Origin: Parcubacteria bacterium C7867-005
Lineage (GTDB): Bacteria; Patescibacteriota; Minisyncoccia; Phycocordibacterales; Zambryskibacteraceae
Direction of reading: 5' to 3'
Assembly: GCA_001189165.1 (NCBI GenBank)
Contig: LFCO01000003.1
Coordinates: forward strand, 190,984-254,983
DNA: 64,000 bases
A model generated the notes under the pieces. It was not told the DNA's origin. It ran no database searches and worked only from the letters and a program-made list of their open reading frames with translations. The first letter of the stretch is position 1. Each line of letters begins with the position of its first letter. The position numbers and the translations under genes are program-made. Below are positions 21,109-63,396 of the stretch, one piece after another.

Positions 21109-21196
21109 GTGGGTCTCGGTTCGAGTGGGTACATCTCTCCTCTGAACCTATCAAAAACAGGTATACATGTCCACTTCCAACCATCCACAATACGTG

Positions 21197-21270
21197 TCCA
21201 CCCTCTTGGATTCGAACCAAGGACCCCCGAGGTATAAGCTCGATGCTCTAACCAACTGAGCTAAGGGTGG
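21197..21270 (-). tRNA. tRNA-Ile (anticodon UAU)
   Basis: Cloverleaf: acceptor CCACCCU/AGGGUGG, D-arm UAGCUCAGUUGGUUAGAGC, anticodon stem UCGAG/CUCGG with loop CUUAUAC (UAU), T-arm CUUGG-UUCGAAU-CCAAG, discriminator A73; no encoded CCA. Confidence 0.8.
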
Positions 21271-26711: not shown

Positions 26712-26733
26712 TTGCGGAGAGAGCGAGATTGAA
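26712..26733. repeat. direct repeat of the tRNA 3' end (copy distal to tRNA 26830-26916)
   Basis: TGCGGAGAGAGCGAGATTGAAC vs TGCGGAGAGAGCGAGATTCGAAC at 26828-26850. Confidence 0.85.
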
Positions 26734-26827
26734 CACTTGGGAAACCCACGGTTTTCCCAGTCCTTCCTCCACGGAAGAGGATGCTCCTCTCCCGACCCCA
26801 CTCCTGTTCGAATCTCGCCAAACACAG
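26734..26827 (-). ncRNA. conserved structured element, copy A (between tRNA and its 3'-end repeat)
   Basis: About 85% identical to 51252-51345 (copy B); shared hairpins, one with compensatory substitutions (A: CGGGAGAGGA-GCAU-UCCUCUUCCG; B: CGGGGAGA-AGCAGGGCG-UCUCCCCG). Confidence 0.4.
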
Positions 26828-26829
26828 AT

Positions 26830-26916
26830 GCGGAGAGAGCGAGATTCGAACTCGCGGTTCCAATTAAGGAACGACGGTTTAGTAAACCGTTGATTTAAAC
26901 CACTCATCCATCTCTC
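26830..26916 (-). tRNA. type II (long variable arm, Ser-like) tRNA with apparent anticodon ACU
   Basis: Acceptor GGAGAGA/UCUCUCC, discriminator G, D-arm UGGAUGAGUGGUUUAAAUC, anticodon stem ACGGU/ACCGU with loop UUACUAA, long variable arm, T-arm GCGAG-UUCGAAU-CUCGC; anticodon is one base from GCU. Confidence 0.6.
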
Positions 26917-26995
26917 CAAGGATTGGCCCTAATATCCTACCAGAATTTAGGCCCAAAATAAGCCCATCCTCATTTGTGCTATCCTGTATGAGAAA

Positions 26996-27312: not shown

Positions 27313-27404
27313 GGAGACGTGTCAGAGTGGTCTAACGTACCTCTTTGCTAAAGAGGCAGGTCCCTTAAAAGGCCTCGAGGGTTCGAATCCCTCCGTCTCC
27401 GCCA
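27313..27404 (+). tRNA. tRNA-Ser (anticodon GCU), CCA encoded
   Basis: GGAGACG...; anticodon stem CCUCU/AGAGG with loop UUGCUAA; long variable arm; T-arm GAGGG-UUCGAAU-CCCUC; 3' CGUCUCC-G-CCA. Confidence 0.9.
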
Positions 27405-27442
27405 GATGTCCAAGTTCGAACCGAAGCAAAATAAGGGTTTTT
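27398..27442 (+). repeat. att-like repeat, copy 1 (tRNA-Ser 3' end plus downstream leader); further copies at 31390-31436 and 33370-33402
   Basis: ccgccagatgtccaagttcgaaccgaagcaaaataagggttt vs caccgccagattggcaactttgaacccaagcaaaataagggttt (31390-31436); degenerate third copy ctccgcagtttgtgac at 33370-33402. Confidence 0.8.
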
Positions 27443-27460
27443 AGGCTAAAATAAGGCAAC

Positions 27461-28135
27461 ATGAAAATTATTAACACATATTCATTTAAAGGTGGAGAGA
27501 AATTCCTCAAGACCAAACACCCTAAAGAACTCAAGGAAGTTCAAGATGCTATCAAAGCATTGGATGCCACTCTTTGCTTAACCAAAGAGAGTAAAGAGAA
27601 AACTAAAAAAGGTCAGGTTTTGTTTTCTCCTGTAGATATGAATAATTATCTGAAACTGGTCTGTCATCAGAAAGGATGGACGACAAAAGCCGAGGAAGGC
27701 AAAAAGAGAAAGTTTGTAGAGCCACGTCACGCTTTTGGCAAAGGACGATTTCGTGAAATGGACGGTATCAAGAATAAAGTTGGTCTTGAGATTCAATTTG
27801 GGAAATACGCCTTCATGGGTTATGACATCTTTTCAAAGATGATCATTTTCAAAAACTTAAAATACATTGAGTGTGGTATAGAGATTGTTCCAAGTAATGA
27901 ATTGGTAAAATTCATGTCCACAGGAGTCTCATCTTTCGAGCAACTTCTTGTTGATTTTGAACACAGAGGAGAAAGTAATATTGATATCCCTGTTTTTGTA
28001 ATGAGTATTGGTCTTACAGATGAGGAAAAAACAAAGTCTCAAACTTTGAGAGAACTTTTCCGTACTGACAAGAAAGAAGCGCTCACGAAAATCAAGTTGC
28101 GTAAGTATAATGGATCAGCCCCTGGCCCCAAATAA
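27461..28135 (+). CDS. type II restriction endonuclease, BglII/BamHI family
   Basis: Similarity to the BamHI core (VGLEIQFGK ~ VGMEFETGN; GIEIVPS ~ LAIILMP; GVSSFEQLLVDFE ~ RVTNFEELEPYFE); catalytic spacing D-x8-E-x-Q (REMDGIKNKVGLEIQ) as in BglII; 3' end overlaps the MTase gene by 21 nt on opposite strands. Confidence 0.65.
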   Translation: MKIINTYSFKGGEKFLKTKHPKELKEVQDAIKALDATLCLTKESKEKTKKGQVLFSPVDMNNYLKLVCHQKGWTTKAEEGKKRKFVEPRHAFGKGRFREMDGIKNKVGLEIQFGKYAFMGYDIFSKMIIFKNLKYIECGIEIVPSNELVKFMSTGVSSFEQLLVDFEHRGESNIDIPVFVMSIGLTDEEKTKSQTLRELFRTDKKEALTKIKLRKYNGSAPGPK

Positions 28136-29707
28136 ACTCTCTCGAGCTTTTTTAAATTCGTCTGGCAACTCAGCAAGTTTTACACTACTGGTTGGTTGAT
28201 ACACCGGAGTCCCCATCATTCGACGGTTTAATGTTCCATCAGCGGCCGCTCTCACTCTTTCCTCAGCGATATCTAAATATTCTTTCATAATATCTGATCC
28301 ATATCCTTTGCGATCATGAATCACTGCTGCACAAACTGAGCTTCCTACGCCAAGATAGGGATCAAGTACTGCATCACCTGGGTTGGTCATGGATAACACC
28401 AATCGTTCAATAAGCTCGATCGGGAATTGACATGGATGGTCTGTTTTTTCCGGGTGATTATTTTTAACATTCGGAATATCCCAAACATCTTCGGGGTTTT
28501 TACCTAAAGGGTTACCGGACAAAGTTCCGTATTTTTCGTTTTTCTTAAAATTCTTTTTACCTGGGTACTTTTGGGGTACTCGTACAGGGTCAAGATTGAA
28601 GGTGTAATTGTCGCCTTTAGTGAACCAGACGATTGTTTCGTGTCGTCCTGAAAATCGCTTGGTGCAATGTAGACCATGGCCAAATCGCCAGATGATACGA
28701 TTGCGAAGCTTCAATCCATACTTTTTACCTATCTGATAAATCAAGGCATCTAGCGGAAAGACTTCGCCGTCTTTTGCGATATGGTTTCCGACCTGCCAGC
28801 AGATACTTCCGTCATCAGTAAGTATTCGAACTGCTTCTTCAAAGGTTTGCTCTTGTGCAGCCAGATATACATCTAAGCTTGTTCGTTTTTCGTACTCCTT
28901 ACCAATGTTATAGGGTGGTGATGTAACTATTAGTTTTACCGATTTATCTGGAATAGATTTCATTAAATCGAGGCGATCTCCTTGGAATAAAACCACATCC
29001 GCATCCGCGCTGTATTTATTTGCGATTTTAATTTTCTTCTTCCGATTGAACAGTGAGTGCTGATCTACAGCGATCACGGGTTTTTGTTTTTTTACCTCTT
29101 TTTGTTCAGTCTCCTCGCTAGTCTTTACAACATCTAAAACAATTCCCTGAATTGTTAAACGTGAAGGGTGAATAAACTTTGGCTGGAGGTCAGGATTAGC
29201 TGGCTGTAGTCTTATTTGCCCTTTTTCTTTATAGTATTTTTTGAGAGTAGCTTCGTTTTCATCTATCAAAGCAACAATTTTCTGCCCATTCTCAGCTGTT
29301 GATTGATTTCGTACAACTACCAAATCCCCATCATCAATATTTTCATCAATCATACTTGTACCTGATACACGAAGGGCATAAACTTCACCACCTTTTGGCA
29401 TTTTTGATTTTGGAATAGCTATAGTTTCTCTTTCTTGAATTGCCTCAATTGGCTCTCCTGCGGCTATAGTGCCAAGCAGAGGAATCTTTACCCAAGGTTC
29501 GTCGCTTGCAACACTGATCGCACGAGCTTTGTTATCCACCTTATCCAGATAACCCCCTTCTTTGAGCTTTGCTATGTGAAAATGTGCAGTGGAAACGGAG
29601 GCAAGCTTAAATTTCTTTTGGATATTTTCCAAAGAGGGAGCGTAACCCTTCTTTTCTAGGTAGTTTTTAATGAAGTCGAGGACTTCTTTTTGACGTTTTG
29701 TAAGCAT
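28115..29707 (-). CDS. LexA-like repressor/S24 peptidase fused to N4/N6 DNA methyltransferase (beta class)
   Basis: N-terminal 200 aa align along the whole of LexA (wHTH; cleavage-site-like IAAGEP; S24 motif GTSMIDENIDDGDLVVV; catalytic-Lys region ATLKKY). C-terminal 330 aa carry MTase motif IV LIVTSPPYNIG ahead of motif I DPYLGVGSS (beta order, SPPY). Confidence 0.75.
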   Translation of the reverse strand: MLTKRQKEVLDFIKNYLEKKGYAPSLENIQKKFKLASVSTAHFHIAKLKEGGYLDKVDNKARAISVASDEPWVKIPLLGTIAAGEPIEAIQERETIAIPKSKMPKGGEVYALRVSGTSMIDENIDDGDLVVVRNQSTAENGQKIVALIDENEATLKKYYKEKGQIRLQPANPDLQPKFIHPSRLTIQGIVLDVVKTSEETEQKEVKKQKPVIAVDQHSLFNRKKKIKIANKYSADADVVLFQGDRLDLMKSIPDKSVKLIVTSPPYNIGKEYEKRTSLDVYLAAQEQTFEEAVRILTDDGSICWQVGNHIAKDGEVFPLDALIYQIGKKYGLKLRNRIIWRFGHGLHCTKRFSGRHETIVWFTKGDNYTFNLDPVRVPQKYPGKKNFKKNEKYGTLSGNPLGKNPEDVWDIPNVKNNHPEKTDHPCQFPIELIERLVLSMTNPGDAVLDPYLGVGSSVCAAVIHDRKGYGSDIMKEYLDIAEERVRAAADGTLNRRMMGTPVYQPTSSVKLAELPDEFKKARESLFGARG

Positions 29708-29795
29708 ACTATTGACTTGATTATTGTACTTAGAGTATACTAGAAAGAAAATAGAAAATCAAAGTCGACTTATCCACAATTAATATTTAAACATT

Positions 29796-30008
29796 ATGCC
29801 CAAGTACATTAGGAACGCAGGTAAACAATGGACTTCTCAGGAAGAGAAAAGGCTTGTTCAATTAGCAAAAGAAAACACTCCGACCAGAGTAATCGGTTTA
29901 AAACTTGGAAGGCCAGCTGGTGGAGTGAGAGGAAAGGCTCAAGAATTAGATATTAGTTTGCGACCAACAAACCAATCCCCATACAATCGCACCAAGTCTG
30001 GGAAATAA
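29796..30008 (+). CDS. hypothetical small protein divergent from the LexA-MTase gene
   Basis: 70 aa basic ORF; shares the 88-bp intergenic region containing palindrome AGTATACT. Confidence 0.45.
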   Translation: MPKYIRNAGKQWTSQEEKRLVQLAKENTPTRVIGLKLGRPAGGVRGKAQELDISLRPTNQSPYNRTKSGK

Positions 30009-30019
30009 TTTAACAATCT

Positions 30020-31210
30020 ATGGAGCAAATTGAAGAATTAATTAAAAAAGCAAAAGACGACTCGGTTAACGTATCCAGCCTGCTCAGGGATATAAAGATG
30101 TTGCTCAGTGAACTTAATCAACCATTGCCAGAGTGGGTAGCTTCTGAGCTCGAAGGATATGGTAAGGCAAAGGTACCGAAGTACAGGCAGATAAAAGGAC
30201 AAATGAAAGCATGGAATCCTTTTTATGGATGGGTTCCTGTGATTCATAAGAGTTCTGAAATTGAAAATAAGGTATGTACTAGAGGTTCAGGCCAATCGAT
30301 TCGAGAATTAGAGGAATTACTTGCTGACAAATCTTCTAGTAGTTACGAGATGCCTTACCCAGCATCATTTGCAGATCAAATAATTGAAGGCGGCACGAGA
30401 ACAAAAGTGTCTCTATTTATTAGCCGCACCTCACTCACGCATATTTTAGAAACAGTAAGAAACAAGATTCTGGATTTGTTACTTGAGCTTAAGAAAAGTG
30501 ATGGTGCTGTTGAGAGAACGACAGGCGAGGTTCAGAAGGCTGTCGGAGGTATGAGATTGCCAGGTGGAATTGCACTCGGCCCATTGATGTTTAGTAAAGA
30601 TGGGAAGACAGCGAGCACAATAATGGGTCCAGCAATTATCCCATTTGATTACGGTATTACTAATTCACTCAACAATCTAAATAGAACTGATCTACCACAC
30701 GATGAGTTCCAATCAGCTTTTAATTCTCAAGTAGAAGATTTGATTGCCGAAACGCTTATATATTTTCAAAACCGACTGAAGCCTGTAGTCAAAGGAAACT
30801 CGGGGCAATTTAATAGTATCGATCGATGTATTAAGGAATATGAAAAATGCGAAATTGATGTAAAGAATTTGTGTGATGCCGAATTTCTTTTAAAAGTTGA
30901 TCAGGTACGTGGTAGAAAACACCATTCAGACAGGCGTTATGACGCTGATTACTCCATAGGTGAAGTCAGCTATGATTCAGTTGAAAAACTAAGAGAACTG
31001 AATCGTAAGGTACATACAATAATTCACGCCTTGAATGACAGTCTAGCTGTAACTCATAAAGACTACGACGTTAAGGTCACTCAGACAGCGAATAGCGTAT
31101 CAATCGAATTTACTGCAACAAGTCATGCTTTTGACTTAACTCGTGGCGGAAAGACTGTTCCTAAGAAGGAGAAGGACTCTGGTGACGAAGGGTTGGCTGG
31201 TAAGAGTTAA
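30020..31210 (+). CDS. hypothetical 396-aa protein in the R-M island (possible HEPN-like Abi protein)
   Basis: No recognisable family; weak Rx4H motif RGRKHH near the C-terminus; location next to the R-M pair. Confidence 0.5.
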   Translation: MEQIEELIKKAKDDSVNVSSLLRDIKMLLSELNQPLPEWVASELEGYGKAKVPKYRQIKGQMKAWNPFYGWVPVIHKSSEIENKVCTRGSGQSIRELEELLADKSSSSYEMPYPASFADQIIEGGTRTKVSLFISRTSLTHILETVRNKILDLLLELKKSDGAVERTTGEVQKAVGGMRLPGGIALGPLMFSKDGKTASTIMGPAIIPFDYGITNSLNNLNRTDLPHDEFQSAFNSQVEDLIAETLIYFQNRLKPVVKGNSGQFNSIDRCIKEYEKCEIDVKNLCDAEFLLKVDQVRGRKHHSDRRYDADYSIGEVSYDSVEKLRELNRKVHTIIHALNDSLAVTHKDYDVKVTQTANSVSIEFTATSHAFDLTRGGKTVPKKEKDSGDEGLAGKS

Positions 31211-51126: not shown

Positions 51127-51203
51127 GTCGGCGTAGCTCAGTTGGTTAGAGCGTGGGACTCATAAGCCCAAGGTCGGAGGTTCGATCCCCCCCGCCGACA
51201 CCA
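51127..51203 (+). tRNA. tRNA-Met (anticodon CAU, elongator-type acceptor), CCA encoded
   Basis: GUCGGCG/CGCCGAC acceptor (G1-C72), D-arm UAGCUCAGUUGGUUAGAGC, loop CUCAUAA, T-loop UUCGAUC, A73-CCA; could alternatively be tRNA-Ile2 if lysidinylated. Confidence 0.8.
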
Positions 51204-51251
51204 AACATAAAATACCTCGCTTTATGTGGGTTGTTTTATGTTTGATTTTGG

Positions 51252-51345
51252 GAGATCGAACAGGAGAGGGGGTCGGGGAGAAGCAGGGCGTCTCCCCGTG
51301 GAGGAAGGTCTGGAAAAACCGTGGGTTTCCCAAGAGTGAGATCAG
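51252..51345 (+). ncRNA. conserved structured element, copy B (3' of tRNA-Met), followed by repeat of the tRNA 3' end at 51346-51359
   Basis: About 85% identity to copy A (26734-26827, minus strand); the distal repeat CCCCCGCCGACACC duplicates 51187-51202. Confidence 0.4.
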
Positions 51346-51403
51346 CCCCCGCCGACACCCCAGATTGATTTAGGGCCATAAGTCTGCTATTTTATAGACC
51401 ATT

Positions 51404-51475
51404 GCGGCTGTAGCTCAACGGTAGAGCACTCCCCTGTCACGGGAGAGGCCGTGGGGTCAGCACCCATCAGCCGCG
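51404..51475 (+). tRNA. tRNA-Asp (anticodon GUC)
   Basis: GCGGCUG/CAGCCGC acceptor, G73, anticodon stem CUCCC/GGGAG loop CUGUCAC; unusual T-loop GUCAGCA; no encoded CCA; followed by hairpin AAAGAGTCC...GGACTCTTT. Confidence 0.75.
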
Positions 51476-51536
51476 CTAGCGAAAAGAGTCCTAGAAATGG
51501 GACTCTTTCCTGTGCGGGTCTATAAGACATGGAGCT

Positions 51537-51545
51537 GGTATAATT
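51537..51545 (+). promoter_or_regulatory. extended -10 promoter TGGTATAAT (leaderless arrangement); identical element at 52325-52333
   Basis: TGGTATAAT ends 6 nt before ATG 51552; the second copy ends 6 nt before ATG 52340. Confidence 0.5.
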
Positions 51546-51551
51546 TTTTGT

Positions 51552-51914
51552 ATGAGAGACTATAAAGAGTTAATTTTTGAGCTAGAAAATAAGCTTCAGC
51601 ATCCAGAGGTTCGGAAATCTGTGCAGGAGCTTGATGGGTTAATATCAAATGATCTAATTGAGTTTGGAAGTTCTGGGCAAGTCTATACGAAGAAAGATGT
51701 GCTTGTGAATCTTCCAAGCTCTACAGAGATCAAATTTAACATGACTGATTTCGATGTTATTGCTCTGGGTCCAGACATTGTTCAGTCGCGTTTCAAGACC
51801 GAAAAGACAAATTTGCAGACAGGAGAAATTACCAGATCGCAGAGAAGTTCTCTTTGGCGAAATGAGAATGGAAAATGGAAAATGATATTTCACCAAGGCA
51901 CACCCACGAAGTGA
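51552..51914 (+). CDS. NTF2-like/SnoaL-like (DUF4440 family) protein
   Basis: C-terminal NGKWKMIFHQGT motif typical of DUF4440. Confidence 0.55.
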   Translation: MRDYKELIFELENKLQHPEVRKSVQELDGLISNDLIEFGSSGQVYTKKDVLVNLPSSTEIKFNMTDFDVIALGPDIVQSRFKTEKTNLQTGEITRSQRSSLWRNENGKWKMIFHQGTPTK

Positions 51915-51968
51915 CTATCGGATGATTGAGTATCACCGTAATCCTATCCATCTGTTACAATTAAACAA

Positions 51969-52268
51969 ATGCCTGAAGGAACACCAGACCAAGAAAGTAC
52001 AGAATCGCTCAGACAAAGAGTGGTCGAAGCACTTAGGCAGAGTACAGAAGATCTGTCTTTGTTGAATGAATTCCTTGATAGACGACAACTTGAAGTGGGG
52101 GACAGCAGACAGGGTATGATGCTGAATGTTGAGGTTGCTCATATGTATAAAGAAGCAGGTTTAAAAGAATTAGCTAAAGAGGCTTTCCTGGATGCAGCAG
52201 AACAAGCATGGCATGAAAGAGACGATGATCTGTTTGAGAAATTAACCGAAGAGGCAAACGCACTTTAA
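51969..52268 (+). CDS. hypothetical acidic protein
   Basis: 99 aa ORF; no domain recognised. Confidence 0.4.
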   Translation: MPEGTPDQESTESLRQRVVEALRQSTEDLSLLNEFLDRRQLEVGDSRQGMMLNVEVAHMYKEAGLKELAKEAFLDAAEQAWHERDDDLFEKLTEEANAL

Positions 52269-52339
52269 CTACCACAGGTATCGCTAGGCCTTGTCTAATA
52301 CATTAGATTTACGAGGTCTGGAACTGGTATAATTTGTGT

Positions 52340-52921
52340 ATGAAGAAAGTTATTTTGGTTCATGGATGGGATGGCTCGCCACAAAATGATTGGTTTCCTT
52401 GGGCAGCAAAAGAATTAAATAAAATGGGGTATGACGTGGTTGTACCTCTTATGCCTAACCCAGCGCGGCCCGAGATAGAATCTTGGTTAAACAAGTTATC
52501 TGACGTCGTGGGCGATGTTGATGAGGAAACTGTTTTTATTGGACACAGTATAGGTTGTCAGGCTGTATTGAGGTTTATGGAAAGATTGGAAAAACATAAA
52601 AAAGTTTCCAAGATAATTTTGGTGGCTCCGTGGATGGCTTTGGACGAGGAAACAATCAAAGAGGAAGGAGAGGAATCAATAGAGATTTCTAAGCCCTGGA
52701 TAGAAACACCAATTGATTTTAATAAGGTAAAAATTCATGCGGACAAATTTGTCGCTTTGTTTTCAGATGATGATCCGTTTGTTCCTCTCAATCAAAAAGA
52801 TGTATTTGATAAAGCGTTGTCGGCTAAAATAATGGTTCAGCACGGTATGGGACATTTTACTCAGTCAGATAACGTATATGATCTGCCTATAATCTTGGAT
52901 TTAGTCTCAGTTCAGGGATAA
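52340..52921 (+). CDS. alpha/beta-fold serine hydrolase (YdeN/RBBP9-like)
   Basis: Nucleophile elbow GHSIGC, HGW at the N-terminus; ATG 52340 preferred over TTG 52334. Confidence 0.65.
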   Translation: MKKVILVHGWDGSPQNDWFPWAAKELNKMGYDVVVPLMPNPARPEIESWLNKLSDVVGDVDEETVFIGHSIGCQAVLRFMERLEKHKKVSKIILVAPWMALDEETIKEEGEESIEISKPWIETPIDFNKVKIHADKFVALFSDDDPFVPLNQKDVFDKALSAKIMVQHGMGHFTQSDNVYDLPIILDLVSVQG

Positions 52922-52979
52922 TTTATTATTTTTAGTTCTAAATTATCCACTAGCTCTACTCATTTGCTATAATGAATAG

Positions 52980-53684
52980 ATGACACATACAAAGAAGCCG
53001 CAGTGGTCGCTTATCTCCATGCTCGTTATTTTGGCTGTAGGCGTAGTGATATTCTTTAGACCAGGAGGCATAGAAGATAGTTACCCAGTAGCCACATCTA
53101 CTCCGTCTGTCGTAGGACAGAGCACAAATACTTTTCCAACCAAGGAACCTCTTTATGGGGCGATAGCTTTACGAATTGGTGAAGTCGGAGTGTTTAGGAA
53201 TCTATCTATCACCCCCAAAGTAGTTGTAGAAGATAGCAGGTGCCCTATGGATGCTCAGTGTATTTGGTCCGGTAGGTTTAGGGTTGCTGTAGAGGTGGTG
53301 TCGGCTATGGGTACGAGTACCCAGACGATGGAAGTTGGTGATTCTATGACCACGGAAGCAGAGGAAATAAAATTTGTGAATGTGATACCTGGAAATAAAT
53401 CTGCCTCAGGAATCTCTCTTGGCGAATACCGTATGACATTTGAGGTGTCCAAAAAAGAGATAAGTACAAAACCTACTCCGGCACCTATAAGTAAGAAGTG
53501 TTTTGTGGGTGGATGCTCTGGGCAGATATGTTCGGACAGAACCGACATGGTGTCTACGTGTGAATGGAGGTCAGATTATGCTTGCTATCAAACAGCGAAA
53601 TGTGAAGTACAGGCGGGAGGTCAGTGTGGTTGGACACAGACAAATGAGCTTCAAATGTGTTTAGAGAATCCGCCCGCACTTTGA
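52980..53684 (+). CDS. hypothetical secreted/membrane-anchored protein with C-terminal eight-Cys module
   Basis: N-terminal TM/signal anchor; C-terminal CFVGGCSGQICSD...C..C..C...C..C. Confidence 0.5.
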   Translation: MTHTKKPQWSLISMLVILAVGVVIFFRPGGIEDSYPVATSTPSVVGQSTNTFPTKEPLYGAIALRIGEVGVFRNLSITPKVVVEDSRCPMDAQCIWSGRFRVAVEVVSAMGTSTQTMEVGDSMTTEAEEIKFVNVIPGNKSASGISLGEYRMTFEVSKKEISTKPTPAPISKKCFVGGCSGQICSDRTDMVSTCEWRSDYACYQTAKCEVQAGGQCGWTQTNELQMCLENPPAL

Positions 53685-56481: not shown

Positions 56482-56937
56482 ATGAAAAAGAACAAAGCCG
56501 GATTCACCCTTATTGAACTTTTAGTGGTTATAGCTATCATCGGGATATTATCATCTGTAGTTCTCTCTTCTTTAAATCAGGCGCGCGCGAAGGGTAAGGA
56601 TGGTGCAGCCAAGGCAGATTTGGCCAGTATCAGATCTCAAGCAGCTCTTTATTTTGATGATAACAACCAGAGTTATGGAACCGCGGGTATCGCCTGTGAC
56701 ACGGCCGGCAGTGTGTTCGATCCACTTGCCACAAGTAACCTGAACGGCATAATCCTCGATGCAGAGGGCAAGGTGAATGCGACAGCAACCTGTGCAAACG
56801 ACGATGTTTCTTATGTAGTCGCCCTACCGCTCTTGAGTGGGGATGTGTGGTGTGTAGACTCTACTGGGGTGGCCAGTACAACCTCTCTTGCCCTTACAGG
56901 CACTGGAAGTGTCGAGGAGTTGATTGCTTGCCAGTAG
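56482..56937 (+). CDS. type IV pilin paralog
   Basis: NKAGFTLIELLVVIAIIGILSS prepilin signal. Confidence 0.8.
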   Translation: MKKNKAGFTLIELLVVIAIIGILSSVVLSSLNQARAKGKDGAAKADLASIRSQAALYFDDNNQSYGTAGIACDTAGSVFDPLATSNLNGIILDAEGKVNATATCANDDVSYVVALPLLSGDVWCVDSTGVASTTSLALTGTGSVEELIACQ

Positions 56938-57008: not shown

Positions 57009-57079
57009 TGCCGATTCGTCTAATGGTAGGACGACCGCCTCTGGAGCGGTTAATTGGGGTTCGAGTCCCTGATCGGCAG
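57009..57079 (+). tRNA. tRNA-Gln (anticodon CUG)
   Basis: UGCCGAU/AUCGGCA acceptor, D-arm GUC-UAAUGGUAG-GAC, anticodon arm ACCGC-CUCUGGA-GCGGU, T-loop UUCGAGU, G73; no CCA. Confidence 0.8.
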
Positions 57080-57092
57080 CTCGTGATATTCT
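57079..57092 (+). repeat. leader/att-like motif GCTCGTGATATTCT, copy 1; longer and degenerate copies of the tRNA-Gln 3' half at 57799-57837, 58625-58661, 59641-59670, 60130-60152 and 60447-60475
   Basis: Exact 14-mer repeated at 58648-58661 and 60139-60152, each 6-7 nt before an ATG; copy 2 (aaattcgaacatcgtaccagacgggcagctcgtgatattct) resembles the tRNA 3' half ggttcgagtccctgatcggcagctcgtgatattct. Confidence 0.8.
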
Positions 57093-57098
57093 GAGTAT

Positions 57099-57782
57099 AT
57101 GGAGGACGTAGATTTAGCATTAATAGATGCTTGTGAATATTTTAAAGATCGTGGGGTGGTTTCTGCGTATCGATGGGGTTCTTCTGTTCGGAATGATTAT
57201 CGTCCGGGGATCAGTGATTTTGATAACCTCATAATTGTTGATGATGTTAAACGCCCCCCAACAGAAACAGAGTTCAAGGAATATATTGATAGAAACTACC
57301 CCCAATTGTTTCGTTTTCATGTTAACTATCTTTCGCTCGATGAGATAGAAGGTAACACACCACATAATAAGCTTATTAAATTATTTCCTGTCGATTATCT
57401 TCTTGATCAATTTCACACCTGGAAATATGTTTGGGGAAGGAGATTTAGTAGAGAAGATTTTAAAATTAATCCGTGGAATACTGAAGAAATTATTCAATAC
57501 CACAAGAAATTCGCCCTGGATCAATTTAAGGACATTGAATCAAAATACTCCACGGGCCTCCACTATCTTCCAGTAAAAAGCTGTATCGTTCTCTGTTACC
57601 ATCTTCATAAGAAAATTAAAGGAGATCATGAATATAATTATTTAACCATATTAAACAACGTAACTGACCAAACCAAAGATATGTTACCGCTTCTTATGGA
57701 TCTTCGGGCAGAGCAGTATCCTGTAGAGAAGGTCAGGGTTTCAGTGTCGGCGATTATAGAGTGGTTAGAGAAAAAAGTTTAA
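57099..57782 (+). CDS. nucleotidyltransferase-fold protein (ANT/Lnu-like)
   Basis: Pol-beta-type NTase motif GSSVRNDYRPGISDFDNLIIVDD. Confidence 0.6.
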   Translation: MEDVDLALIDACEYFKDRGVVSAYRWGSSVRNDYRPGISDFDNLIIVDDVKRPPTETEFKEYIDRNYPQLFRFHVNYLSLDEIEGNTPHNKLIKLFPVDYLLDQFHTWKYVWGRRFSREDFKINPWNTEEIIQYHKKFALDQFKDIESKYSTGLHYLPVKSCIVLCYHLHKKIKGDHEYNYLTILNNVTDQTKDMLPLLMDLRAEQYPVEKVRVSVSAIIEWLEKKV

Positions 57783-57865
57783 GCTTTTTTGAATAAGGGT
57801 TCCCAACTTCGTACCATGAGGTCAGTTAGCTTGACAGGGATTAAGTTTAAATGTAAACCAGATAT

Positions 57866-58621
57866 GTGAACAAATCGGAACTAAAAGTGGTTTTAATCTG
57901 CGGGGGGAAGGGGACCAGAGTCTCTGAGCTTACAGGTGCTGTAAGCCCTAAATCGTTAATCAGGTTAAGTAAAAAGGTGTCTAGGCCTCTTGTTGCGTAT
58001 CAACTAGACCAACTAAAGAGGGCCGGAGTTAAGAGTGTTCTACTCGTACTCGAGAATGATTGGCAGGTTCCAATTTTCAAACACTCGATAAGATCGGGAG
58101 AGTTTCCTGGTATGAACTACTCTTTTAGCACCTGTTTTACTCTCCATCCTTTTTCTATCTTTTCCCATCCAGACATAACAAAATTTATAGGCCGATCTAA
58201 TTTCCTGGTCTCCTACGGGGATATCTACTACTCTCTAGACATTCTAGGAAAAATGAAAAAATTGTTATCAAGGAACAACACTTCAGTCGCATGTGGTATG
58301 TATTCAAAAAGTAAGCGCTGGAGAAAGGGTAAAAAATTTATAACCTTCTCTAAAAATAATAAAGGAGAAGTGGTCAATATAGGGTATTCGGACAAGGCAG
58401 ATTTTACAATCCACGCCCCCTTTTTATTCAAACACAAAGCACTGGGGACAATTTTAAGACGGGCAAAGCTTAACTCGGCCAGAACTATTCCGATCCTTTC
58501 CGACCTCATAGGAACGAGTAATTTGTCTGTGGTTACCCCACGGCGGTTGGTTAATTTAACTACTTTGCAGGATGCTAAAAATGTTGAAGGAGCAATAAGA
58601 GAAGGGCATTTAAACCAATAA
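57866..58621 (+). CDS. sugar-phosphate nucleotidyltransferase-family protein (GTG start)
   Basis: N-terminal LICGGKGTRV (GGxGTRL motif). Confidence 0.55.
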   Translation: MNKSELKVVLICGGKGTRVSELTGAVSPKSLIRLSKKVSRPLVAYQLDQLKRAGVKSVLLVLENDWQVPIFKHSIRSGEFPGMNYSFSTCFTLHPFSIFSHPDITKFIGRSNFLVSYGDIYYSLDILGKMKKLLSRNNTSVACGMYSKSKRWRKGKKFITFSKNNKGEVVNIGYSDKADFTIHAPFLFKHKALGTILRRAKLNSARTIPILSDLIGTSNLSVVTPRRLVNLTTLQDAKNVEGAIREGHLNQ

Positions 58622-58668
58622 AATTCGAACATCGTACCAGACGGGCAGCTCGTGATATTCTAGAGATA

Positions 58669-59631
58669 ATGGAAAAAACCAAATTTCAACTCATTATTGA
58701 AGCCACGAAAGAAATAGATGATCTATTTGAAAATACCTCAACAATGAATGAGAAGTTTTCTCTTGTGTTTCCAGTTCCCAAAAGTGGAAACCATAGAGAG
58801 ACAATAGATTCTTACCTATATCGCTCCAGTGAGATAGAAAACCTGGATCTTGGTAATTCTTTTGTAATCTGCGACGAGAATCTTAAAAATACTTTTGTTA
58901 ATGAAGTATTAAATGGTAAAGATATTTACTATATAAATTCTGCAGAGGGGGATATAAAAGAAATTGGAACCTTGGGTAAATTTATCGACGGTCACCAAAA
59001 TGAAATTGTTGATAAGAGCAGAATTGTAGCCATGGGTGGTGGAATTATTTTAAATATCACTGCATATATTGCGGAAAAGTTTACCAAAGATTTGGTATAT
59101 ATACCCACAACAATAATATCAATGTCTGATGGAAGCATGGGTGGAAAAGTAAGAGTGAATAAAATTGAAGGTAACATATTCATTAAACACTTCTATAAAA
59201 GCTTTTATGAGCCCAATGAAATTTTAATCGATAAGAGGTTTCTTAACTCTCTGTCTGAAGAGGGAATAAGGGTGGGCGTGGCTGAAGTTGTTAAACACGG
59301 GGTATACCAATCAGCAAAACTCTTAGAGTACCTGAATTCACAGAAATTTAACCCCCATGAAGATAAAGATAGTTTATGGAAAGCGATTCTGTGGACGGCC
59401 TCATTGAAAAAAGTTTGCTTAGATATTGATTACGAAGAAACAAAAGAAGGGTCGAATATTATTCTAAGGGGTGGGCATGATATCTCGGATAAGATTGAGG
59501 AGGAGTCTCGTTTTACTATTCACCACGGCAGGGCGGTAACTATGGGAATGTGGCAAGATTTAGAGTCAGCTAACTCGATTACTCCAGCTATTGAAGCGAT
59601 TTATTCTAAATTAGGTCTCGCCAAGGCCTAG
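58669..59631 (+). CDS. 3-dehydroquinate synthase-like sugar phosphate cyclase
   Basis: IVAMGGGIILNITAYIA and VYIPTTIISMSDGSMGGKVRVN match DHQS-family NAD/metal-binding motifs. Confidence 0.6.
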   Translation: MEKTKFQLIIEATKEIDDLFENTSTMNEKFSLVFPVPKSGNHRETIDSYLYRSSEIENLDLGNSFVICDENLKNTFVNEVLNGKDIYYINSAEGDIKEIGTLGKFIDGHQNEIVDKSRIVAMGGGIILNITAYIAEKFTKDLVYIPTTIISMSDGSMGGKVRVNKIEGNIFIKHFYKSFYEPNEILIDKRFLNSLSEEGIRVGVAEVVKHGVYQSAKLLEYLNSQKFNPHEDKDSLWKAILWTASLKKVCLDIDYEETKEGSNIILRGGHDISDKIEEESRFTIHHGRAVTMGMWQDLESANSITPAIEAIYSKLGLAKA

Positions 59632-59736
59632 AAAAGTTTCAACTTCGTATTACAATGTCATTAAATTGACTTCTATCTTTTTGTGTGATTTTATCTTGAA
59701 AGAGTACGGTTAAGTCACCCTTACCGCCAAGGTTCT

Positions 59737-60075
59737 ATGCCGAATACCAAGAAGAGGAGACCGTCCGTTCGAAGTAAGAGGAAGATCGAATTCGTGAGCC
59801 ATGAATACAAGCTCTGTGACCCCATGTCCTCCGATGGCCCCATTTTCGGGGAGGTGACAACGGTCAGGGTTCGTGAGGGAACTATCCTCTACCTTCAATG
59901 CTGGAATGGCGAAAGGTCTAGTGAGTACGGGCTAGTGCCTGGCTTCATCGCTTCTCCCTGGTACAAAAGGGGGAGCAGGAGAGCCGCGCTAGTGAACCCG
60001 CTCACAGAAGCCGGCAGGAAGAAGTACGCGAAGAAGTTCGGCAAGCTTCTCAGGGGGAATGTCAATTTCTGGTAA
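59737..60075 (+). CDS. hypothetical basic protein (GC-rich cassette)
   Basis: 112 aa, markedly GC-rich relative to neighbours. Confidence 0.4.
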   Translation: MPNTKKRRPSVRSKRKIEFVSHEYKLCDPMSSDGPIFGEVTTVRVREGTILYLQCWNGERSSEYGLVPGFIASPWYKRGSRRAALVNPLTEAGRKKYAKKFGKLLRGNVNFW

Positions 60076-60158
60076 TCCGCCCGGCATAATGCTGGCGGTT
60101 CTTTTTAAAATAAGCCACAGGCTCATTCTAAGTGGTAGGCTCGTGATATTCTTAAAAT

Positions 60159-60440
60159 ATGAACAAAGAAAATCTTACCAAGAAGCTGAAAGAGGAAGGG
60201 TTTGTAAATGTGTACGAGTGGCATGATGAACCCGATACTGAGTACCCCGAACATGCTCACAAAGGAGCTGCCGCACTTTATATTCTTGAAGGGGGTGTAG
60301 CACTCGACATTGGAGATGAAAAAATAGAATTAAGAGAAGGTGACCGTTTCGATGTCCCTGCAGGGAAAAGTCATACTGCTAAGGTAGGGTCTACCGGATG
60401 TATCTTTCTTGTTGGGGAGATGATCGAGGGTGATTCATGA
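60159..60440 (+). CDS. cupin-domain protein
   Basis: Cupin motifs HAHKGAAALYILEGG and DRFDVPAGKSH. Confidence 0.65.
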   Translation: MNKENLTKKLKEEGFVNVYEWHDEPDTEYPEHAHKGAAALYILEGGVALDIGDEKIELREGDRFDVPAGKSHTAKVGSTGCIFLVGEMIEGDS

Positions 60441-60501
60441 ATGGATTTCAACTTTGTATCAGACAGCCGATCTTTAAATCTATTTCTGATAATATAAATC
60501 T

Positions 60502-60939
60502 ATGGACATTAAACCAAAAATACTTGAAGTTTTGGACAAAGGTCATCTCATGAGTTTGGCTACCGTTGGAGCAGTTGGAGTTTGGGTTTCTGACGTTGTT
60601 TATATTTATGATGAAGATCTAAATATTTATTGGATGTCAGATCCAGATGTTAGACATTCGGGTGCCATCAAAGAAAACAAAAACGTGGCTGGGTCGATCA
60701 CTATCAGTAATAAAAGCAAAGAATTGAATCTCGGTATTCAATTTTCTGGAGTTGCAGAAAAAATAGATGGTCCGAGGTTTGATTTGGCCAAGAAACATCT
60801 AAGGAAACGAAGCCATCCAGAACCCAAGGAAGAGGACGACGTGCTTCAGGGTGATTCTTGGTACATGCTGAGACCCTCCAGAATCGACCTGATTGATGAG
60901 GAGAACTGGGGTTATGAGAAGAAGAGCCTGGATCTATAA
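60502..60939 (+). CDS. pyridoxamine 5'-phosphate oxidase-family (FMN-binding split-barrel) protein
   Basis: N-terminal GHLMSLATVGAVGVWVSDVVYIYDEDLNIYWMS pattern. Confidence 0.55.
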   Translation: MDIKPKILEVLDKGHLMSLATVGAVGVWVSDVVYIYDEDLNIYWMSDPDVRHSGAIKENKNVAGSITISNKSKELNLGIQFSGVAEKIDGPRFDLAKKHLRKRSHPEPKEEDDVLQGDSWYMLRPSRIDLIDEENWGYEKKSLDL

Positions 60940-61003
60940 AAACTAAAACCCCTATATTTGATCGCATACTCGCAAAATTTCGTCATTTCTGTAGTATTGA
61001 TTT

Positions 61004-61630
61004 ATGGATAAAATAATTGACCTTATTAACCTTCTTCAAGTTTCACGTATCCAGCCTCAGTATGGCTATGCCGTGGCTGGTGGGAACGAAAGGATTGGCG
61101 ATCTTGCTCAGCATCATTATTTAGTTACTATGCTTGGGTGGCAACTTTCTGAATTAGTAAATAGTAAGGGGGCAAGTATAGATATTTCAAAAGTCATCAA
61201 ATTTTGCTTGATACATGACATCGGGGAACTATTCGGAGGAGATATTGGAATGTATTATGCCAAGGCAAATCCAGCCGCTCGTAATTTTGCAAAACGTTTT
61301 GAAGAAGAAAATCAAAAATTCCTCGGGAGTTATTTCAGTAATCAAGAAGAATACACGGAACTGACGAGAGAGATAATGGGCTCTGAGTCAAACGAGGCCC
61401 ACATATCAAAAATAGCTGACTATCTGGAGGTTACTCACTACAAGTTATTTAGCGGGCAATTAAAAAGGAAAGATGTAGAGCTAATTGCACCAAAGCTTGC
61501 TGAAAAGATTGAAAAGCTAACTGACAGAGTGGCCAAAGAAGAGTTGTTTAAGTTTGTGGAGACGTGGAAAGAGAAAATGGTCAAGTACGACTCTTTCTTA
61601 GATGCTTCTACAGATGCCCTTAGGGTTTAG
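61004..61630 (+). CDS. HD-domain phosphohydrolase (YfbR-like)
   Basis: LAQHHYLVTMLGW ... LIHDIGE HD motif. Confidence 0.65.
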   Translation: MDKIIDLINLLQVSRIQPQYGYAVAGGNERIGDLAQHHYLVTMLGWQLSELVNSKGASIDISKVIKFCLIHDIGELFGGDIGMYYAKANPAARNFAKRFEEENQKFLGSYFSNQEEYTELTREIMGSESNEAHISKIADYLEVTHYKLFSGQLKRKDVELIAPKLAEKIEKLTDRVAKEELFKFVETWKEKMVKYDSFLDASTDALRV

Positions 61631-61812
61631 ATTTTAGGGTTTCAACTAAGTGGTTTTTGATAAGGAGACGATGGGTGAACCATACGAATCAACCTGGAAG
61701 GAAGAAGTAGAAAGGGTTAAGGATCAGAATCTATAAAAATTCCAATTCTGGGTCCGCCACGCCGATTCCTGTCGGTGAATTGGGAAGGAGTAAACTTTTT
61801 AGTATTTCTATT

Positions 61813-62838: not shown

Positions 62839-62898
62839 AACTTTATCATTATGTCAAAAGTGGTCAAACATTTTTTAAGTAGTATAATTATCTTTGAT

Positions 62899-63396
62899 AT
62901 GAAAAAAAGAGGTTTTACCTTGATTGAACTTTTGGTCGTGATAGCCATTATCGGACTTCTCTCTTCTGTGGTCCTTGCCAGCCTAAGCATTGCCAGGACT
63001 AAATCTCGAGATGCAAGTATTGTATCCGGCGTACTAGAATTCAGGAAACTCATGGAGCTTGAGTATAGCAATGTAGGTAGTTACACGAACTTAAACCAGG
63101 GTTGGGTGGGCACAACAGTAAACCCAACCTGTGCATTAAGGGGTTATTCTGGTGTAAACGCTGCTCAAGCCGTATCTATGTGTGGAGAGATCCAAAAAAA
63201 CATAACAAGCAAAAGTGCTAACGATTTCCACACAGGAGTAGATATCAGTTTGGGCTTCAGTAACTCTAGGCAGTATTCAATCATGGCCCGCCTATCCACT
63301 GGCCAATATTTCTGTGCTGGTTCTAGTGGCAAGACAAGCAAACAAGGGAATAGTGGGAACGGTTGGACAGGTACAGGTTGTTACGGCAATCCATAA
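62899..63396 (+). CDS. type IV pilin paralog
   Basis: KKRGFTLIELLVVIAIIGLLSS prepilin signal; ATG 62899 preferred over 62851. Confidence 0.75.
   Translation: MKKRGFTLIELLVVIAIIGLLSSVVLASLSIARTKSRDASIVSGVLEFRKLMELEYSNVGSYTNLNQGWVGTTVNPTCALRGYSGVNAAQAVSMCGEIQKNITSKSANDFHTGVDISLGFSNSRQYSIMARLSTGQYFCAGSSGKTSKQGNSGNGWTGTGCYGNP

Follow-up and report, generated by a model that had tools for sequence, protein, structure and literature searches.

An array of small genes and attP-like repeats beside tRNA-Gln in a Parcubacteria genome: probable accretion of gene cassettes by a large serine recombinase

Bacteria of the candidate phyla radiation (CPR), or Patescibacteria, have tiny genomes, and their means of gene acquisition are poorly known. 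Among described systems, elements of the Ralstonia phiRSM type are complete, filamentous-phage-like phages that integrate at tRNA 3' ends by means of a serine recombinase, a small resolvase-like enzyme. Islands of the staphylococcal cassette chromosome (SCC) include units without a recombinase of their own (PMC5964201, PMC3026799, PMC12648241), and a minority of tycheposon-type elements use large serine recombinases (LSRs) (10.1101/2020.12.28.424599). The half-sites of the Listeria LI integrase share a recombinase-domain motif beside the crossover and a zinc-ribbon-domain motif; for LSRs the distance of this second motif from the crossover is 5 bp shorter in attB than in attP, and attP half-sites measure approximately 25 bp (PMC3783163). 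The present analysis concerns a 64,000-nt stretch of the uncultivated Parcubacteria bacterium C7867-005 (contig LFCO01000003.1, positions 190,984 to 254,983), hereafter the window, in which seven genes downstream of tRNA-Gln(CUG) are interspersed with copies of a 27-nt element, termed E. No description of an E-array system in CPR bacteria was found in the searchable literature.

In the region from 57080 to approximately 61760, foreign gene cassettes have probably accumulated at the extreme 3' end of tRNA-Gln(CUG). The most likely builder is an LSR from a family of small integrative elements that carry a rolling-circle replication protein (Rep) together with an LSR (Rep+LSR elements) and are directed at this tRNA in Paceibacteria. 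The inserted, foreign origin of the genes, g1 to g7, all on the + strand downstream of the tRNA, is supported by their absence in 80 relatives, by a mosaic GC content (0.32-0.50 between units, with g4 at 0.50 vs 0.32-0.40 for the adjoining genes) and by a pseudo-tRNA-Gln at the distal edge. The features of the locus, in window coordinates, are as follows.

57009..57079, + strand: tRNA-Gln(CUG) (ARAGORN; Rfam 55.8 bits)
57058-57079, + strand: putative attB-type left half-site, the last 22 nt of tRNA-Gln (GGTTCGAGTCCCTGATCGGCAG), from comparison with the E consensus
57079..57092, + strand: 14-mer copy 1, apparently the native 3' flank of tRNA-Gln (putative right half-site), its -10 box 6 nt before the g1 ATG
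57099..57782, + strand: g1, NTP_transf_2 nucleotidyltransferase, cassette gene (Pfam E=1.4e-5)
57797..57825, + strand: E1, putative attP-type element GGGTTCCCAACTTCGTACCATGAGGTCAG, 15 nt after the g1 stop (PSSM, defined below, 17 bits, rank 2; nhmmer)
57866..58621, + strand: g2, NTP_transferase-like sugar-1-P nucleotidylyltransferase (Pfam and NCBIfam, both far below cut-off)
58622..58648, + strand: E2, putative attP-type element AATTCGAACATCGTACCAGACGGGCAG, 1 nt after the g2 stop (PSSM 34 bits, rank 1)
58648..58661, + strand: 14-mer copy 2, putative right half-site and predicted leaderless promoter, 7 nt before the g3 ATG
58669..59631, + strand: g3, DHQS-like (AroB-related) protein (Pfam DHQ_synthase, DHQS_C)
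59632..59662, + strand: e3, decayed E AAAAGTTTCAACTTCGTATTACAATGTCATT, directly after the g3 stop (PSSM 8 bits, rank 3)
59737-60075, + strand: g4, GC-rich open reading frame (ORF) of 112 aa, family unassigned; with its terminator to 60107
60139..60152, + strand: 14-mer copy 3, putative right half-site and predicted leaderless promoter, 6 nt before the g5 ATG; no E on its left
60159..60440, + strand: g5, cupin (Pfam Cupin_2)
60441..60471, + strand: e5, weak E ATGGATTTCAACTTTGTATCAGACAGCCGAT, directly after the g5 stop (PSSM 1.8 bits, rank 4)
60502..60939, + strand: g6, PNPOx-like (YhbP-like) protein (family search)
60980..60997, + strand: degenerate fourth flank/promoter copy TCGTCATTTCTGTAGTAT (cf. 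TCGTGATATTCTGAGTAT) before g7 (local alignment score 19)
61004..61630, + strand: g7, HD_3/YfbR-like phosphohydrolase (Pfam)
61761..61784, + strand: pseudo-tRNA-Gln remnant GCCGATTC-CTGT-CGGTGAATTGGG (12-mer match)

E has the form GTTCYAAC-N-TCGTMCCA...GGNCAGC, and its copies in the array start 0-18 nt behind the stop codons of four genes, g1, g2, g3 and g5. A position-specific scoring matrix (PSSM) was built from 182 foreign metagenomic copies only, and when both strands of the window were scored with it the top four sites, all on the + strand, were those at 58619 (34 bits), 57796 (17), 59632 (8) and 60441 (1.8), with shuffled sequence scoring mostly below 0; E is therefore strong at two boundaries, moderate at one and weak at one. 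The g4/g5 boundary holds the 14-mer alone and the g6/g7 boundary a degenerate 14-mer copy alone (60980-60997), and a candidate E copy after g7 was not significant. PSSM and profile searches found E nowhere else in the 64-kb window outside the array, except for a decayed copy at 52934 of a type linked to tRNA-Asp.

The second repeated sequence is the 14-mer GCTCGTGATATTCT, present exactly at 57079, 58648 and 60139 and without any further match at fewer than three mismatches on either strand of the 64 kb, a length in which approximately six three-mismatch matches are expected by chance. For copies 1 and 2 the match is perfect over 18 nt (GGCAGCTCGTGATATTCT), among them the final 5 nt of tRNA-Gln, and amounts to 86% identity over 28 nt. 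As 18-bp direct repeats, 1569 bp apart from start to start, these two copies bracket g1-E1-g2, while copies 2 and 3, as 14-bp direct repeats with a spacing of 1491 bp, bracket g3-e3-g4. Homologues of the tRNA-Gln flank (CCA-ACTCGTGATAGG, TCGTAA..GGTATAAT and TCGTAAAATTGGTATAAT) stand behind tRNA-Gln, or behind the last E, in other lineages, and the 14-mer is accordingly read as the native 3' flank and putative right half-site of tRNA-Gln; together, E2 and 14-mer copy 2 would constitute an attR-like site.

A first-pass annotation, made from the letters of the window, had reported tRNA-Gln(CUG) at 57009-57079, three exact 14-mers 6-7 nt before start codons, a boundary consensus ttcgtaYYAnnnGRcag and an element derived from the tRNA 3' half before each of at least six ORFs, one duplicated tRNA end per gene. 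ARAGORN and Rfam agree on the tRNA, the 14-mers stand at the reported distance from the ATGs at 57099, 58669 and 60159, and the consensus is real, as the foreign PSSM ranks its four sites first in the window. The repeats before the ORFs are likewise real, but E follows stop codons and does so at four boundaries only. The likeness to the tRNA 3' half holds in direct alignment at 58622 and 60139, where the 14-mer is present and the score is significant, and elsewhere only through the family consensus with a 5-nt gap. Both clean inserts bounded by direct repeats hold two genes.

For comparison, 80 related species were gathered via FtsX (1.26 Mb of FtsX-anchored loci, designated here, like all related loci, by L numbers), and at least 120 JGI contigs were obtained from an exact-pattern scan of metagenomes; the related DNA amounted to 1.9 Mb. 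The gene order prfB-ftsE-ftsX...tRNA-Gln is conserved among the 80 relatives, and none of g1-g7 occurs at this locus in any of them. A synteny-based ancestral state was considered and dropped: in L085, the closest long relative, whose FtsX is 78% identical, tRNA-Gln is followed by other genes. The sole homologue is a cupin in L079, 61% identical to g5, which lies downstream of tRNA-Asp between Asp-type E copies. An nhmmer profile of E gave 28 matches (E-value <=2.7) in the 1.26 Mb, and every one of the 28 had tRNA-Gln(CUG) or tRNA-Asp(GUC) upstream on the same strand. Copies linked to tRNA-Gln end in ...GGNCAGC and those linked to tRNA-Asp in ...CGCGC, as does the 3' end of tRNA-Asp, and the ORFs preceding E are mutually unrelated. 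In L026, the Asp-type E consists of GTTCTAACATCG and the exact last 15 nt of the locus's own tRNA-Asp, which reads as a real recombinant junction. In L006, a composite GGTTCCAACATCGTACCACAGGGCCAG/CTCGTGATATTCT-6 nt-ATG is approximately 85% identical over 45 nt to the E2 region of the window although the flanking genes are unrelated, and relative to the window this locus carries one extra small cassette exactly between the ...CAGC of the tRNA and TCGTGATATTCT.

Among the matches listed, the metagenome contigs contain at least 254 E copies, which lie on one strand only in all 36 contigs with multiple copies and which, in the 45 instances where E shares a contig with tRNA-Gln (CUG or UUG), are always downstream on the same strand. 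The longest arrays, again among the matches listed, comprise 8-12 E copies (L090, L185, L197 and L123) at a median spacing of 675 bp, E starts peak 0-3 nt after a stop codon, and approximately one third of copies are followed by a -10 box at a median of 45 nt and then, after 5-8 nt, by the start codon of an ORF. E was found only after tRNA-Gln or tRNA-Asp in the 1.9 Mb of related DNA, the metagenome part being among the matches listed. Conservation is sharply limited to the 27 nt, with an A-rich stop-codon region upstream; E is separated from the next start codon by 18-83 nt, the units measure 0.3-1.5 kb, and there is no integrase debris in between. Mutual information across the 182 copies gave no internal pairing or covariation, indicating that E is not a folded attC-like site. 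In L190, E and a promoter-bearing flank are repeated three times, as in the window, whose array reads as a short, partly decayed example of a widespread array type.

The relationship between E and the tRNA is one of spacing. The tRNA-Gln 3' half, GGTTC-GA-GTCCCTGATCGGCAG, has 22 nt and the E consensus, GGTTC-CAACATC-GTCCCAGACGGCCAG, has 27 nt, so that GGTTC and GTCC..CAG are 7 nt apart in E vs 2 nt in the tRNA. The two agree at 17-18 of 23 positions once a single gap of 5 nt is allowed, and E and tRNA of the Asp type differ in length by 5 nt as well (27 nt vs 22 nt). As this spacing matches, at the level of sequence, the LSR rule, E fits an attP-type half-site, and the tRNA-Gln end an attB-type half-site, of one LSR. 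The repeats would then be attP-type mimics carried on incoming DNA with 5 nt wider spacing, instead of the degenerate duplicates of the tRNA end proposed in the first-pass annotation. The terminus of E also varies with the tRNA, being CAA in five of six copies where the discriminator of the local tRNA-Gln is A and CAG in 48 of 57 elsewhere. Together with the insert boundary at CAG/C seen between L006 and the window, this covariation would place the crossover at the last bases of the tRNA.

A candidate enzyme recurs at the same site. An LSR with Resolvase, Recombinase and Zn_ribbon domains, whose best NCBIfam relatives are CcrB and CcrA (approximately 100 bits vs cut-offs of 700-900), was found at tRNA-Gln in L020, L035, L047, L080, L210-L213 and others, and in the first four of these its final ~20 codons run into the tRNA-Gln gene from the opposite strand. 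Starting from E, the LSR abuts or overlaps tRNA-Gln on the opposite strand and E lies 3-8 kb away on the tRNA strand; in five metagenome contigs, among the matches listed, E is 3-5.5 kb from the LSR and on the opposite strand. Three independent look-ups starting from the recombinase protein gave four loci, all with the same geometry, of which three are distinct because L211 and L212 have an identical LSR protein and E. All four begin with host genes and tRNA-Gln, which overlaps the LSR 3' end; a G2P/Phage_CRI-type Rep comes next, then cargo of 5.7-7.7 kb encoded on the strand of the tRNA, and finally E. The sequence directly behind E in L210 is the native tRNA-Gln trailer (CCA-ACTTGAGACAGGTTC...), the same trailer that follows the tRNA in insert-free genomes. 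This map and the trailer in L210 indicate that E is the far-end att site of Rep+LSR elements, and the array in the window would be a recombinase-less derivative of such an element. The cargo of the Rep+LSR elements (L211 1-9000, L213 700-8200, L210 1500-8800) consists of defence genes (DpnI, Mrr-STAND, a ThsB TIR protein, BsaWI restriction-modification, Zeta toxin, CD-NTase/SMODS) or of runs of small enzymes (NUDIX, Ser_hydrolase, His_Phos_1, RibD_C, Lactamase_B). A recombinase on the 5' side of tRNA-Gln was also considered and rejected, the recurrent neighbours there being CTP synthase, DnaX and FtsX, all housekeeping.

In the mechanism proposed from these observations, the last 22 nt of the tRNA would form the B half and the native flank CTCGTGATATTCT the right half-site, and the incoming DNA would bring E as its attP-type left half-site, directly behind its last gene. 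Recombination at the discriminator/3'-end position would keep the tRNA intact and set the new DNA beside it, displacing older material, headed by E and the old flank, downstream, the presumed older units being the more decayed. Because the whole left half of attB lies inside the tRNA, the site would be rebuilt at each event and insertion could recur, and a rebuilt site would permit both stacking and action in trans on units without a recombinase. The proximal part of the array would then read tRNA / CTCGTGATATTCT-g1-E1 / TTAGCTTGAC...g2-E2 / CTCGTGATATTCT-g3-e3-g4-terminator, and the distal part GCTCGTGATATTCT-g5-e5 / g6 / degenerate flank-g7 / pseudo-tRNA-Gln remnant, the order of events presumably running from the distal to the proximal units. 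The iterative integration at the tRNA put forward in the first-pass annotation thus agrees with the link between E and the tRNA, the absence of g1-g7 in 80 species and the insert in L006, though the enzyme was likely an LSR acting in trans. The integron-type mechanism suggested alongside it is not borne out, there being no IntI in the window and no attC-like folding of E.

The -10 boxes in the flank copies, 6-7 nt before the ATGs, predict that the cassettes are expressed as leaderless mRNAs. The 14-mer holds an extended -10 box TGATATTCT, of the sigma-70 type, 6, 7 and 6 nt before the ATGs of g1 (57099), g3 (58669) and g5 (60159), and comparable boxes stand 6 nt before the ATGs of g6 (TGATAATAT, 60487-60495) and g7 (TGTAGTAT). 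Of the window genes, 45 have an upstream spacer of 40 nt or more; in 16 of these a TANNNT finishes exactly 6 nt ahead of the start codon and in nine others 7-8 nt ahead, while Shine-Dalgarno-like motifs are present in just four. Leaderless expression appears to be the default in this genome, and the leaderless promoter as the norm explains the distance from 14-mer to ATG; it does not explain the exact conservation of GCTCG upstream of the -10 box. The alternative named in the first-pass annotation, a generic promoter element, is right for the -10 box, which is an ordinary leaderless promoter, but not for the full 14-mer, which within the window is confined to the array. Gene g2 has a GTG start and a possible promoter upstream, TTGACA(57831)-17-TAAACC, and a predicted terminator (hairpin and T-run, 60077-60106) lies directly 3' of g4.

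Three other explanations of the repeats were weighed. Chance or low-complexity likeness among AT-rich intergenic regions draws on the observations that short tRNA k-mers occur elsewhere at chance frequency and that TTCAACTTCGTA with up to two mismatches is not enriched across the window. It is already refuted by the three exact 14-mers, with the nearest others at three mismatches (approximately six expected), by a foreign PSSM that puts the four sites as the top four of the window, and by the hundreds of E copies elsewhere that, among the matches listed, keep strict position and strand. A more serious proposal, although an improbable one, is that the repeats are expression signals, with the 14-mer as a promoter or operator co-regulating g1, g3 and g5 and E as a 3'-end RNA element (terminator, stabiliser or protein-binding site) of a tRNA-linked operon. 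The placement of TGATATTCT 6-7 nt before each ATG is the standard leaderless geometry of the genome, E often stands 0-3 nt after stop codons and always on the sense strand, and its conservation exceeds the expectation for neutral scars. However, outside the array the window has no full 14-mer and, but for the Asp-type copy at 52934, no E; in the 1.9 Mb, among the matches listed, E stands only behind tRNA-Gln/Asp; its 3' end tracks the tRNA type and the local discriminator, for which an RNA signal offers no reason; E has neither internal pairing nor covariation; it marks the far end of LSR elements, where the native tRNA trailer follows; and the flanking genes are unrelated to one another and missing in relatives.

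Slightly less probable again is an ordinary, decayed tyrosine-integrase island of phage-like or tycheposon-like origin, in which the repeats would be displaced partial tRNA copies (attR) and the integrases were later deleted. Islands anchored at tRNAs are a familiar phenomenon, partial tRNAs being scattered in them and integrations occurring in tandem (10.1101/2020.12.28.424599), and true, exact duplications of tRNA 3' ends beside a small non-coding element do exist in this clade. Set against this, E is a separate conserved family with 5 nt wider spacing and not a copy of the local tRNA end, the tRNA share of the 18-bp direct repeat is just 5 nt, the units of 0.3-1.5 kb have no integrase debris in the 18-83 nt between E and the next start, and the recombinase that recurs at the site is of the serine type. 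No tyrosine recombinase was detected by tblastn with an XerD query in the 1.9 Mb of loci, which is weak negative evidence, nor in the Pfam lists for the window.

Several further candidates were tried and rejected. An RNA processing signal resembling a tRNA was set aside as E has no T-stem or acceptor partner and Rfam was blank; an exact-pattern scan of IMG/VR for a phage attP gave no E; attC-like folded sites were excluded by the lack of R''/R' boxes or hairpins in the intergenic regions and of covariation among 182 E copies; and for loxP/dif-like inverted arms, AACTTCGTA is similar to a loxP arm but the second arm is absent.

The preferred reading, accretion by an LSR at the tRNA end, has to be held against a number of points that weigh on the other side. 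The Pfam lists contain no recombinase gene in the array or in the whole 64-kb window, and the weakness of the tyrosine-recombinase negative counts here as well. Recombination by LSRs normally proceeds in one direction and leaves attL unused. Repeated use of the tRNA site, and activity on cassettes that lack a recombinase, would have to be supposed, and re-use of a product site is atypical for these enzymes. The right half-sites are heterogeneous, and the dyad match between left and right half-sites covers only about five of ten inner positions. In L139, E is separated from the trailer by a partial tRNA-Gln, and a crossover deeper inside the tRNA, or a tandem tRNA, would fit this too. An RNA-level role could also explain the tight post-stop position of E and its conservation. 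The three public copies of the locus are all identical, offering no strain presence/absence variation, and in all-vs-all comparisons (160 cassettes as DNA, 141 ORFs as protein) only identical contigs had cassettes in common, leaving the mobility of individual cassettes putative.

A further-reaching proposal, to be regarded as tentative and as distinctly less secure than accretion itself, is that E arrays are a gene-capture system of Patescibacteria and an integron analogue, in which an LSR supplied in trans from Rep+LSR elements inserts and excises promoter-ORF-E minicircles at tRNA-Gln, at tRNA-Asp (with matched E) and perhaps at others. Such capture would work because the tRNA-borne half-site is rebuilt at every event, and the array in the window would be a small, ageing member of the system.

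The gene families are those given by the first-pass annotation according to Pfam, with the qualification that g2 and g3 score far below NCBIfam cut-offs (g3 reaches 130 bits against aroB, cut-off 305). Given that shortfall and the unrelated cassettes of other arrays, the aminocyclitol/aminoglycoside-type chemistry that had been loosely suggested has no support. Pfam/NCBIfam-type searches gave no family match for g4, and a homologue of g6 in L181, 36% identical, adjoins an E. The locus is also present in the Parcubacteria/Paceibacteria metagenome-assembled genome GCA_002396705.1 (contig DGYO01000002.1). The pseudo-tRNA-Gln remnant at 61761-61784, in the same orientation as the intact tRNA and 4.7 kb downstream of it, is the sole other 12-mer match (up to one mismatch) that the window contains, and of the three GCCGATTC 8-mers one is collinear with it. 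In the remnant, the 5' strand of the acceptor stem is joined to the 3' side of the anticodon stem, the variable loop and the 5' side of the T-stem, through an internal deletion of the D and anticodon arms, and there is a break exactly before GTTC. The remnant is probably the distal edge of the inserted array and may be a relic of a tandem second tRNA-Gln gene; tandem second tRNA-Gln-like genes are present in L028 and L139. Type IV pilin-like genes lie on both sides of the array (56482-56937 and 62851-63396), and in 13 of approximately 60 related loci tRNA-Gln and ftsX have the reverse relative orientation, suggesting frequent inversions around the tRNA.

Elsewhere in the window, in the region 51404-53000, tRNA-Asp(GUC) is followed by genes for a DUF4440 protein, a 99-aa protein of unknown family and a Ser_hydrolase, each with a leaderless promoter of the TGGTATAAT type, and then, at 52934, by the decayed Asp-type E AGTTCTAAATTATCCACTAGCTCTAC. 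This locus reads as a second, smaller array of the same kind as that at tRNA-Gln. Homologues of its Ser_hydrolase are cassettes in the Gln arrays L100 and L123. A third E variant ending in ...CCGGAGC (GTTCTAACATCGTCCAGTTCCAGGAGC) forms a short array beside Gln-type E (L118 10880-12253, L165 1011) and presumably targets another tRNA, and possible Met-type variants were seen at L085 5997 and L082 4959.

A separate, non-coding tRNA-linked element of 110-170 nt occurs in the window at 51240-51365 (+), after tRNA-Met (51127-51203), and at approximately 26715-26860 (-), after tRNA-Ser(ACU) (26830-26917), as well as in related loci (L006 7820(-), L033 134(-), L047 8135, L061 13054, L009 15614(-) and L056 9578(-)). 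At its 5' end it has the reverse complement of the T-arm, and at its 3' end the final ~17 nt of the tRNA upstream of it (Met, Thr, Asp, Gln or Ser) are repeated exactly or almost so. The core, GGGGTCGGGAGA-hairpin-TCTCCCGTGGAGGAAGGaCTGGGAAAACCGTGGGTTTCCCA, is conserved, and two hairpins show compensatory changes. No Rfam match was found for it, and it is possibly a new structured RNA or a miniature integrative element. A defence islet encoding a BglII-type endonuclease, a LexA-fused N6/N4 methylase and AbiTii lies directly downstream of tRNA-Ser(GCU) (27313-27404; islet region 27313-31210), and the 3' sides of tRNAs appear to be general hotspots for accessory genes in this genome. ARAGORN also assigned unusual anticodons to tRNA-Ile(UAU) at 21196-21270 (-) and to tRNA-Ser(ACU) at 26830-26917 (-).

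If the proposed reading is correct, many CPR/Patescibacteria keep a dedicated hotspot at tRNA-Gln in which a serine recombinase stacks small accessory genes, among them those for metabolic patch enzymes and, in relatives, defence genes of the restriction, CBASS and Thoeris-like kinds. E would then be a simple sequence marker for the flexible gene pool in metagenomes, the enzyme would be a natural large serine integrase with a regenerated target site, of relevance to serine-integrase engineering, and the arrays would show that the integron problem, how to collect single-gene cassettes, has been solved independently a second time.

Among described systems, the phiRSM type has in common with the CPR elements a G2P/Phage_CRI-type rolling-circle Rep, a serine recombinase and the placing of its att site at the 3' end of a tRNA gene. 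The CPR elements differ in their cargo, which is metabolic or defensive, and showed no capsid genes. The Listeria A118/LI integrase model (PMC3783163) corresponds in its shared motifs and in the zinc-ribbon-domain motif lying 5 bp further out in attP, a pattern that both the Gln and the Asp types show; in contrast, the right halves here are heterogeneous, and repeated use of a product site would be atypical. The tycheposons of Prochlorococcus likewise form a variable island 3' of a tRNA, in which newer insertions displace older ones outward and tRNA-like fragments are scattered, yet they measure several kb and carry their own integrase, replication genes and true partial tRNA copies, whereas the window has attP-type mimics and single small genes without a recombinase.

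Integrons share with the E arrays the same-strand arrangement of small, diverse, mostly one-ORF cassettes (the 141 cassette ORFs are essentially all different), a recombination-site-like element directly behind each ORF, a fixed recipient site at one end, and the existence of arrays without a nearby recombinase, as in clusters of attC sites lacking integron-integrases (CALINs). They differ in that no IntI or other tyrosine recombinase was found here (the 1.9-Mb search, made with an XerD query, being weak), in that E is a 27-nt non-palindromic motif vs the folded attC and the recipient is a tRNA 3' end, and in that many cassettes here bring their own leaderless promoter. With SCC/SCCmec, the likeness extends to the recombinase type, as CcrAB and CcrC are LSRs and the best NCBIfam matches of the CPR enzyme are CcrB and CcrA, to insertion at the extreme 3' end of a conserved housekeeping gene that is left intact, and to tandem stacked units bounded by repeated att sequences. 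However, the resemblance is confined to mechanism: the SCC target is rlmH and not a tRNA gene, its units are tens of kb vs 0.3-1.5 kb with one or two genes here, the host here is a CPR bacterium, the CPR enzyme, at approximately 100 bits against Ccr cut-offs of 700-900, is not a Ccr, and the autonomous CPR elements carry a rolling-circle Rep. The closest mechanisms are those of SCC composite islands, integron arrays and tycheposon islands, and on defining features the E arrays stand apart from each of the three.

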